Source: Candidatus Methylomirabilis limnetica
Lineage (GTDB): Bacteria; Methylomirabilota; Methylomirabilia; Methylomirabilales; Methylomirabilaceae
DNA length: 32,000 bases
Direction of reading: 5' to 3'
NCBI RefSeq assembly: GCF_003044035.1
Contig: NZ_NVQC01000017.1
Location: forward strand, 183,290-215,289
The notes beneath the pieces were generated by a model. The model made no database searches. It had not been told where the DNA came from and worked only from the letters and a program-made list of their open reading frames with translations. Position numbers and translations under genes: made by a program. Below, in pieces: positions 4,589 through 4,864 of this stretch. Numbering within the stretch: the stretch's first letter is position 1; the number at the start of each line of letters is the position of its first letter.

Positions 4589-4608
4589 GGGCCGGCCGAA
4601 CATCTAAC

Positions 4609-4846
4609 GTAACTACTCAGGTAGACAGGCTGAAGGCTGAAGGCTGAAGGTTTTTAGTGACAAATCATGTGCGATCACACAAAACTTCGGGCATTTGAGT
4701 TGGCGGATGAAGTAGCAATATTGGTTTATCGGGTTGAACAAGAAGTCATAGAAACCGAGGAGGTCTTGAACGGCTTGATTCGTGCCTTGCGGGATAATTC
4801 AGAGCCTTCAGTCTTCAGCCTTCAGCCTAAACACCTGAGTAGTTAC
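4609..4846 (+). mobile_element. Complete non-autonomous copy (E2) of the heptamer-TIR / four-helix-bundle element with an 8-bp TSD
   Basis: Left arm 4609-4650 is gtaactactcaggtagacaggctgaaggctgaaggctgaagg. Right arm 4805-4846 is its reverse complement at 37/42 positions, with the mismatches clustered in a 4-nt bubble. The direct repeat catctaac flanks it at 4601-4608 and 4847-4854. It sits in the binding-protein/permease intergenic region. Confidence 0.75.
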
Positions 4847-4864
4847 CATCTAACAACATGGTGA
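4667..4864 (+). pseudogene. Internally deleted four-helix-bundle (23S rRNA intervening-sequence protein / Avd-like) ORF carried by element E2
   Basis: MCDHTKLRAFELADEVAILVYRV resembles helix 1 of the family. EEVLNGLIRALR resembles the conserved C-terminal ...kmLngLIrsL. At 65 aa it is well short of the 115-130 aa expected. The ORF tail reads through the right inverted repeat. Confidence 0.5.

Follow-up and report, generated by a model that had tools for sequence, protein, structure and literature searches.

The 32,000-nt stretch of the Candidatus Methylomirabilis limnetica contig NZ_NVQC01000017.1 analysed here (positions 183,290 to 215,289, hereafter the window) contains, at 4609-4846, a 238-bp element which is very probably an internally deleted, non-autonomous copy, similar to transposable elements of the miniature inverted-repeat type (MITEs), of a family of very small transposable cassettes bounded by terminal inverted repeats (TIRs). 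It inserted into the 40-bp spacer between the solute-binding protein (SBP) and permease genes of an ABC transporter operon in a Methylomirabilis-like genome, duplicating 8 bp of its target. In the complete cassette of 430-480 bp, the outer terminus GTAACTACTCAGGT of 14 nt is followed by an end-specific spacer of 4 nt, by one to many heptads of the GGCTGAA type and by a gene for a 116-118-aa four-helix-bundle protein of the PF05635/TIGR02436 family, and a mirror-image arm closes the unit. Members of the family insert with exactly 8-bp target-site duplications (TSDs) at AT-rich, weakly palindromic sites in many bacterial phyla, their short forms arise through differing internal deletions of the four-helix-bundle gene, and the intact gene is preferentially co-oriented with the upstream host gene. 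Cassettes built like the intervening sequences (IVSs) of rRNA, with heptad-repeat arms around a PF05635 gene, are thus bona fide transposable elements outside rRNA.

Structure of the element and of its ORF remnant

A repeat finder recovered two arms of 42 nt each (4609-4650 and 4805-4846), complementary at 37 of 42 positions (88%), together with an exact 8-bp direct repeat CATCTAAC abutting both termini, giving the layout CATCTAAC / element / CATCTAAC over 4601-4854. Each arm is composed of the 14-nt outer terminus, a 4-nt spacer and three GGCTGAA-type heptads, the spacer being asymmetric (AGAC on the left, GTTT in the reverse-complemented right arm). The RNA fold of 4601-4854 is a 14+28-bp stem of -105.5 kcal/mol (z=-8.9; equally stable shuffles 0/200), and the remnant of an open reading frame (ORF) forms its loop, an arrangement shared with IVSs, in which inverted termini making a long stem enclose the ORF of the IVS protein. 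The features of the element and of the two adjoining host genes are as follows.

3461-4588, plus strand: upstream host gene, Fe(III)-type ABC SBP (Pfam SBP_bac_6/1/8/11)
4601-4608, no strand: left TSD copy CATCTAAC, exact 8-bp direct repeat; orthologous empty sites hold a single 8-mer
4609-4650, plus strand: left arm, GTAACTACTCAGGT (4609-4622), AGAC and three GGCTGAA heptads (repeat finder); the terminus recurs at at least 120 genome loci
4667-4735, plus strand: N-terminal remnant, helix 1 (codons 1-23) of the four-helix-bundle gene (BLASTP 21/23 against the L056 protein)
4736-4792, plus strand: deletion junction (EQE) and C-terminal remnant VIETEEVLNGLIRALR, last helix, aligning to residues 95-116 of the full-length protein
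4667-4864, plus strand: 65-aa read-through ORF; native stop lost, continuing across the right arm into the flank
4805-4846, minus strand: right arm, reverse complement of GTAACTACTCAGGT-GTTT-heptads (repeat finder)
4847-4854, no strand: right TSD copy CATCTAAC, exact 8-bp direct repeat
4875-6512, plus strand: downstream host gene, ABC permease (Pfam BPD_transp_1), followed by the ATPase gene at 6509-7696 (ABC_tran)

BLASTP aligned the window ORF with both ends of a 118-aa relative (locus L056), in a first block covering residues 1-23 (21/23 identical, E=4e-13) and a second placing residues 21-42 against 95-116 (14/22, E=4e-8). This two-block alignment implies that ~70 internal codons (helices 2-3) have been deleted from a member of the PF05635/TIGR02436 family. 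The conserved motif of that family, GxxRxxxSxxxNxxEG (PMC3936711), is not present in the window copy, the corresponding RRAAVSVPSNIVEG of full-length copies falling within the deleted part, and the 65-aa ORF is probably non-functional, so that this copy would no longer yield a working protein. An earlier sequence-only reading of this DNA had already described the 238-bp unit with its 37/42 arms, the exact 8-bp flanking repeat, the IVS-like stem and the direct fusion of helix 1 to the C-terminal helix, and all of these were recovered here at the same coordinates. The profile search it had named as a check placed the full-length relatives in the four-helix-bundle family but not the truncated window ORF (4667-4864), which gave no Pfam match at E≤1 and no NCBIfam match at E≤10, too little protein being left.

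The full-length L056 relative matched PF05635 (E=1.8e-33, 115.3 bits, cut-off 33.8), TIGR02436 (E=5.6e-34, 116.6 bits, cut-off 24) and the structure of XCC0516 (PDB 2GSC, E=2.6e-24). It scored 24.6 bits with the equivalog model NF033474 of Avd, the accessory protein of diversity-generating retroelements (DGRs), far below the cut-off of 80. With a longer relative as query, a protein search gave 2740 proteins, every one of PF05635, which are 79-100% identical across the N-terminal part and scattered in length between 58 and 116 aa; full-length members (e.g. P0102 and P0117) terminate in ...IETEKVLNGLIRALR. Papers published in 2016-2024 still term the PF05635-type protein uncharacterised and the origin of rRNA IVSs unclear.

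Empty and filled sites in the host operon

The sequence-only reading had placed the element inside an operon, which proved to be that of the SBP, permease and ATPase genes, with a Fur gene upstream of the SBP gene. The closest homologues of the SBP, 82-94% identical, are found in Ca. Methylomirabilis, and in these relatives the permease starts 40 bp past the SBP stop. Three Methylomirabilis contigs with the same GNAT-Fur-SBP-permease synteny as the window (L212, L209 and L208, with SBPs 94, 92 and 89% identical, respectively) each have an empty 40-bp spacer, colinear with and identical in length to the window spacer minus the element and one CATCTAAC copy, and carry a single 8-mer at the insertion point (CATCGCAC, CACCGAAA and CACCGAAC, respectively). 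The L212 spacer reads gggccggccgaaCATCGCACaccatggtgaag and the window reconstruction gggccggccgaaCATCTAACaacatggtgaag. These empty sites, which the earlier reading had named as a check, came via the SBP orthologues, the exact reconstructed junction GGCCGAACATCTAACAACATGGTGAA having 0 matches in metagenomes. The same spacer contains a 157-bp family member in opposite orientation in M. lanthanidiphila (L210/L211) and a solo-arm relic with the same left junction in L207, which indicates that it has been struck at least twice independently. Neither a sigma-70-like promoter nor a terminator was detected in 4400-5000.

Family census and target-site duplications

Genomes scanned with the terminus plus the first heptad yielded at least 120 loci, and ~8 kb around each match was examined; altogether 211 loci were fetched, and 1.1 Mb of flanks was examined. 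The source metagenome-assembled genomes (MAGs) are labelled as Nitrospirota, Desulfobacterota, Methylomirabilis, Nitrospinota, anammox bacteria, Elusimicrobia, Desantisbacteria and others. A complete element had no blastn match in PLSDB or INPHARED, and the terminus pattern had 0 matches in IMG/VR.

In the pooled loci, both termini were present in 82 distinct elements, which range from 86 to 483 bp (median 172). An exact 8-bp TSD flanks 30 of the 82, and a further 12 match at 7/8, against 1 in the offset control; duplications of 9 bp or more were found in 0/82 and other lengths occurred at background. The sequence next to the insertions is rich in A and T (34% GC, compared with 50% over the loci as a whole) and shows a weak palindromic preference, R-A-N4-T-Y. 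N- and/or C-terminal remnants of the ORF, with differing breakpoints, persist in 40/82 elements, and the four-helix-bundle gene has therefore been internally deleted repeatedly. TIRs with a TSD of fixed length, an empty site, many copies, small size and the lack of a transposase gene together give the family the properties of MITEs and mobile insertion cassettes (MICs).

It could be argued that the window unit is a locally evolved regulatory hairpin flanked by a coincidental 8-mer, its position between genes of an ABC-transporter operon being similar to that of REP elements. This can hardly be true: the orthologous sites are empty, hundreds of copies occur in unrelated genomes, exact 8-bp duplications flank 30/82 elements against 1 in the control, and the element encloses coding remnants of a known gene. 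Empty sites and TSDs throughout the family already refute a hairpin that does not move. These, together with the nested insertion of copy B described below, bear out the earlier suggestion that TIRs plus a TSD betray true transposition, and the count of copies it had called for gave the at least 120 loci and the TSD excess reported above.

Variation of the arms was noted at several loci. A 14-nt terminus followed by a run of more than 15 GGCTGAA heptads occupies ~1-154 of L080, the same terminus is joined to TTCAAGG-type heptads at L016 (~1990-2044) and L088 (~3290-3349), and a minimal 47-bp hairpin of two termini lies at 5132-5178 of L043. Since differing inner repeats are joined to one outer terminus, the latter seems to be what stays constant within a larger superfamily.

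Complete cassettes and selection on the encoded protein

Scanning metagenomes for proteins related to the full-length one yielded 80 loci, of which 10 have both termini, with lengths of 430-479 bp. Three of these (L157, L177 and L182) combine an intact ORF, both termini and an exact 8-bp TSD, and four others have a 7/8 duplication. The content of a complete element is a single 116-118-aa four-helix-bundle gene and nothing else. Many more intact genes keep heptad arms with degenerate or absent outer termini; in L132, L143 and others the copies are orthologous and vertically inherited upstream of a predicted glycosyltransferase gene. The window element had been read as a MITE-like derivative with an IVS-type protein as the only cargo of its family, and both statements agree with these complete elements, which share its termini, in some cases have exact TSDs, and encode no transposase, none recurring nearby either.

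Sequence comparison indicates that the intact four-helix-bundle gene is under purifying selection. Among 58 intact ORFs (1288 pairs) the median ratio of nonsynonymous to synonymous substitution rates (dN/dS) was 0.10 (dS ~1.2), with 0.04-0.2 among most pairs of vertically inherited orthologous copies, and intact copies share the orientation of the upstream host gene at 45:9 (p=7e-7) and of the downstream gene at 40:12, figures that are upper estimates and somewhat optimistic because both sets were selected by tblastn for conserved ORFs and include orthologues. ORF-less copies with assignable orientation showed no bias (9:15 upstream, 13:10 downstream). This co-orientation, along with the lack of a promoter-like site, suggests expression by read-through, in the way of an IVS embedded in an rRNA transcript.

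In L091 (6252-6335) a ~75-bp arms-only hairpin (GTAGGTGAGTAGGCTGAAG...CTTCAGCCTAATGACCTG) lies within the four-helix-bundle gene of a TSD-flanked, 483-bp element, replacing ~16 codons. In L122 (~100-530) and L173 (~250-700) a cassette lies within a tyrosine recombinase gene of the integron type, separating its SAM-like part from its catalytic part, and in L121 (1476-3351) one lies directly downstream of an intact 486-aa recombinase; such places could be preferred targets or neutral landing pads, or could point to a functional link.

Proposed mechanism and search for the mobilizing enzyme

In the mechanism favoured here, a transposase supplied in trans would cut and join the cassette ends with 8-bp staggered cuts. 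The cassette, having no recognizable promoter, would be transcribed by read-through, and its arms would form a long RNA stem like that of rRNA IVSs, which may be cleaved by RNase III. In the window operon, such a stem would separate or destabilize the SBP and permease messages. No transposase is encoded in or near the elements: none was found among the large window ORFs, nor a recurrent one in the 1.1 Mb of flanks; ORFs of at least 180 aa from 126 loci, compared all against all, belonged to housekeeping families only, and all ORFs adjoining solo termini were host genes. Among 29 inverted terminus pairs 600-7000 bp apart, a single one (L074) had flanks within 2 mismatches of an 8-bp TSD, and this candidate autonomous element was rejected, as it consists of two separate MITEs.

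Several observations weigh against the interpretation of the window element as a deleted member of a transposable cassette family moved in trans. The trans-acting transposase is hypothetical, and no longer element with the same termini was found in the ~8 kb around each of the at least 120 genome matches. A clean TSD is lacking from about half of the paired-terminus elements, plausibly because they are old, have recombined with one another or come from chimeric metagenome assemblies; in L144 a single element has the left flank of L130 on one side and the right flank of L141 on the other, by recombination or chimeric assembly, and events of this type likely account for some of the copies lacking a TSD. 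The estimates of selection and orientation carry the sampling bias given above. Inner arms pair no better within an element than between elements (-26.5 against -27.2 kcal/mol, p=0.14), so that covariation gives no signal supporting selection on the stem over selection on the end sequence. Finally, RNase III processing and read-through expression are carried over by analogy from the rRNA IVS literature.

A specific candidate for the missing enzyme is the IS66-family transposase TnpC, of which the cassettes would be non-autonomous passengers. The inverted repeats of IS66 begin with GTAAGCG and its insertions duplicate 8 bp (PMC11946415), as do environmental IS66 copies met here (e.g. L218, GAACAAAC); the cassettes share the initial GTAA and the 8-bp TSD, and an IS66 TnpC fragment lies 2 kb from a cassette arm in a MITE-rich MAG (L102). 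However, past GTAA the cassette terminus GTAACTACTCAGGT is unrelated to the four IS66 ends examined, GTAAGCGCTCAATAAACC, GTAAGCGCCCGAGAAACC, GTAAGCGACTTCTTAACC and GTAAGCGTCAAATAAACC, the cassette termini being of the GTAACTACTCAGG type and not GTAAGCG. IS66 elements, of ~2.5 kb, have GTAAGCG...AAACC inverted repeats and tnpA/tnpB/tnpC genes and are devoid of heptads, and no IS66 gene lies between cassette termini. The co-location in L102 is one case in a region crowded with mobile-element remnants, and the truncated TnpC, found there by a CWAH-motif search, and seven relatives end in the canonical GTAAGCG. IS66 was accordingly rejected as a demonstrated parent and kept as a weak lead, and its role as the specific mobilizing enzyme appears rather unlikely. 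A 2508-bp IS66-family element (tnpA-tnpB-tnpC) with GTAAGCG inverted repeats was observed at different sites across related samples (L214-L219), flanked in L218 by the exact 8-bp TSD GAACAAAC, and is apparently active.

The cassette might also be autonomous, with the 116-aa four-helix-bundle protein acting as a new minimal recombinase or recruiting a ubiquitous host enzyme to the arms; full-length copies would then mobilize the short ones, and rRNA IVSs would be those insertions that struck rRNA helices and are rendered harmless there through excision by RNase III. In its favour, the four-helix-bundle gene is the sole and invariable cargo of every complete element across phyla and experiences strong purifying selection even where ends and TSDs are intact, no transposase was found in the 1.1 Mb of flanks, and the same protein family occurs in IVSs bounded by inverted repeats, for the ORF of which Ralph and McClelland proposed a role in mobility (as cited in PMC4990558). 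Against this, PF05635, Avd and XCC0516 have no known catalytic activity, the family being described as uncharacterised, and staggered cuts of a fixed 8 bp that prefer palindromic targets are the hallmark of DDE-type transposases. The absence of a transposase nearby is expected of any MITE or MIC, and the ORF could equally well be selected for some advantage to host or element that has nothing to do with transposition. An autonomous cassette is consequently considered unlikely, and mobilization in trans remains the preferred reading.

Relationship to rRNA intervening sequences and other small elements

The sequence-only reading had linked the element to rRNA IVSs. The family of the encoded protein and an architecture like that of the Coxiella IVS support the link, which stays indirect, as no copy was seen in rRNA. 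IVSs lie in helix 9, 25 or 45 of a 23S or 16S rRNA gene; no rRNA was found in the window or in the fetched loci (Rfam on the window and 14 loci; conserved rRNA motifs on 211 loci), an absence that is weak evidence because MAGs rarely assemble rRNA operons; Rfam detected no family of any kind in the window. Copies such as L132 and L143, with their recurring flanks, were considered as helix-45 rRNA insertions and rejected, since Rfam revealed no rRNA there.

The IVSs of 23S rRNA (in Leptospira, Coxiella burnetii, Xanthomonas and Brucella) and the rRNA insertions of the candidate phyla radiation carry a protein of the same family (PF05635) in the loop, are of similar size (428-759 nt, against 430-480 bp for the cassettes) and likewise have terminal inverted repeats making a long stem. 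In the Coxiella IVS, a 28-bp terminal inverted-repeat stem is cleaved within by RNase III, three tandem heptads (GACAGAT), varying in number between strains, lie directly upstream of the S23p ATG, and one strain has a 176-bp deletion in the ORF (PMC4990558). The layout is thus the same as in the cassettes, with three heptads followed by the ATG and an ORF-deletion variant, the heptad being GACAGAT there and GGCTGAA here. On this protein-family membership and shared architecture, the cassettes and the IVSs would be related, by analogy and indirectly. That IVSs are transposition remnants or mobile elements, with an ORF serving their mobility, is an old hypothesis (Burgin 1990; Ralph and McClelland 1993, both as cited in PMC4990558). 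Unlike rRNA IVSs, the cassettes occupy protein-coding DNA, at gene ends and in the spacers between genes; their 14-nt outer terminus is conserved, 8-bp TSDs flank them, and they occur in multiple copies and decay into ORF-less MITEs. Excision by RNase III is a trait of IVSs, whereas for the cassettes the stem is a prediction from sequence.

The stem and the homology of the protein with Avd (24.6 bits with NF033474; PMC10053308) raise the further possibility of RNA-mediated mobility, in which a stem-bounded transcript would be excised in the manner of an IVS and reverse-transcribed into DNA with the Avd-like protein as cofactor. The arms do form an RNase III-type stem, and the direction in which the host DNA is transcribed matters for intact copies. 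Nevertheless, the cassettes keep complete TIRs up to the fixed 8-bp TSD, whereas an RNA excised by RNase III would lose its outer stem, the ends of the Coxiella IVS mapping inside the stem (PMC4990558). Neither a poly-A tail, nor a variable TSD length, nor a pattern of 5' truncation was seen, the score with the Avd model is far under its cut-off, and no reverse transcriptase is linked to the elements. The cassette protein and Avd have homologous folds of the four-helix-bundle family (PMC10053308), while the template and variable repeats of DGRs, like their reverse transcriptase, are not associated with cassettes. A route through RNA is therefore very improbable, and DNA transposition with a trans-supplied enzyme is retained.

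MITEs and MICs, such as MIC231 of Bacillus cereus, resemble the cassettes in their TIRs, fixed TSD length, lack of a transposase, small size and many copies, as well as in their internal-deletion series and empty or filled sites. The cassettes differ in that no cognate insertion sequence with matching ends was found for them among the terminus pairs and flanks examined, the passenger is always the same selected gene, the short forms derive from this passenger and not from a transposase gene, and the subterminal heptad arrays are expandable, as in L080. The Correia elements of Neisseria and the REP and ERIC sequences of operon spacers are likewise small inverted-repeat elements co-transcribed with their neighbours; the hairpin of Correia elements, which duplicate TA, is reported to be cut by RNase III, altering mRNA stability. 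Their sequences are unrelated to those of the cassettes, and none of them derives from a protein-coding cassette.

Other copies and neighbouring features in the window

The window holds four copies of the family, and the terminus and heptads recur in it far above chance. The copies other than 4609-4846 are the following.

1904-2256, plus strand: copy A, ~170 bp of its own sequence, with a deeper deletion and no recognizable TSD, interrupted by copy B
1965-2146, minus strand: copy B, 182 bp, nested inverted in copy A, with exact 8-bp TSD GCGTGATC at 1957-1964 and 2147-2154
7658-7757, plus strand: copy D, left arm and first ~13 codons, truncated by unrelated repeats

Copy B landed in the start-codon region of copy A, and its uninterrupted target ATGCGTGATCA equals the gene start in other copies, which thus provide a paralogous empty site; copy B and a copy from Ca. 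Methylomirabilis bin48 (L053) are 93% identical. The GNAT ORF (1136-1945) takes its last 13 codons and its stop from the left arm of copy A, and the ABC ATPase ORF (6509-7696) its C-terminal codons and stop from that of copy D; both proteins share the element-encoded tail VTTQVDRLKAEG(F) (1904-1945 and 7658-7696, respectively). These insertions have displaced the native C-terminal codons and stops of both ORFs. For annotation, the elements generate spurious ORFs and change gene ends, as in these two host ORFs of the window, which stop inside arms.

A BrnT/BrnA toxin-antitoxin pair (CopG-type antitoxin, 2258-2844) lies between the GNAT and Fur genes and abuts copy A at its right end. The spacer between GNAT and Fur is only ~200 bp in L208 and L212 and has no toxin-antitoxin pair there, and the block 1900-2880 is on this account an insertion or replacement. 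Copy D was truncated by small repeat families (7760-7920). A hairpin-like unit CCGCAGCAAGCTGCGGGGTATC occurs twice in the window (7760-7920 region) and also in L142, and an inverted unit GTCATTCCG...CGGAATCCAGTC is common to 7802-7831 and 30476-30505, with a similar unit in L185. Further downstream, at ~17400-27300 on the minus strand, there is a gas-vesicle-type cluster with two GvpL/GvpF genes, an AAA_5 (GvpN-like) ATPase, a CDC48-type double AAA ATPase and an ArsA-type ATPase, again of a Methylomirabilis-like genome.

Significance

Since about 1990 the origin of bacterial rRNA IVSs and the function of their conserved PF05635 ORF have been a standing question. The evidence added here consists of precise 8-bp target duplications, empty sites, nested insertions and a decay series from complete cassette to MITE, in genomes of Nitrospirota, Desulfobacterota, Methylomirabilota, Nitrospinota, anammox Planctomycetota and other phyla, and it supports the suspicion, some 30 years old, that IVS cassettes are mobile. 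No prior description of the element family or of its TSDs was found in the full-text literature, in keeping with the earlier impression that the class had not been reported; the new part is a MITE/MIC family with an unusual, selected cargo and no transposase found. Should the cassette prove autonomous, PF05635/Avd-like proteins would gain a function and the cassette would be the smallest autonomous bacterial transposon known. The protein is kept by selection and apparently depends on host read-through, which makes its role, be it in element propagation, RNA processing or host benefit, experimentally approachable, and the family offers a concrete handle both on how rRNA IVSs arose and on what PF05635 proteins do.

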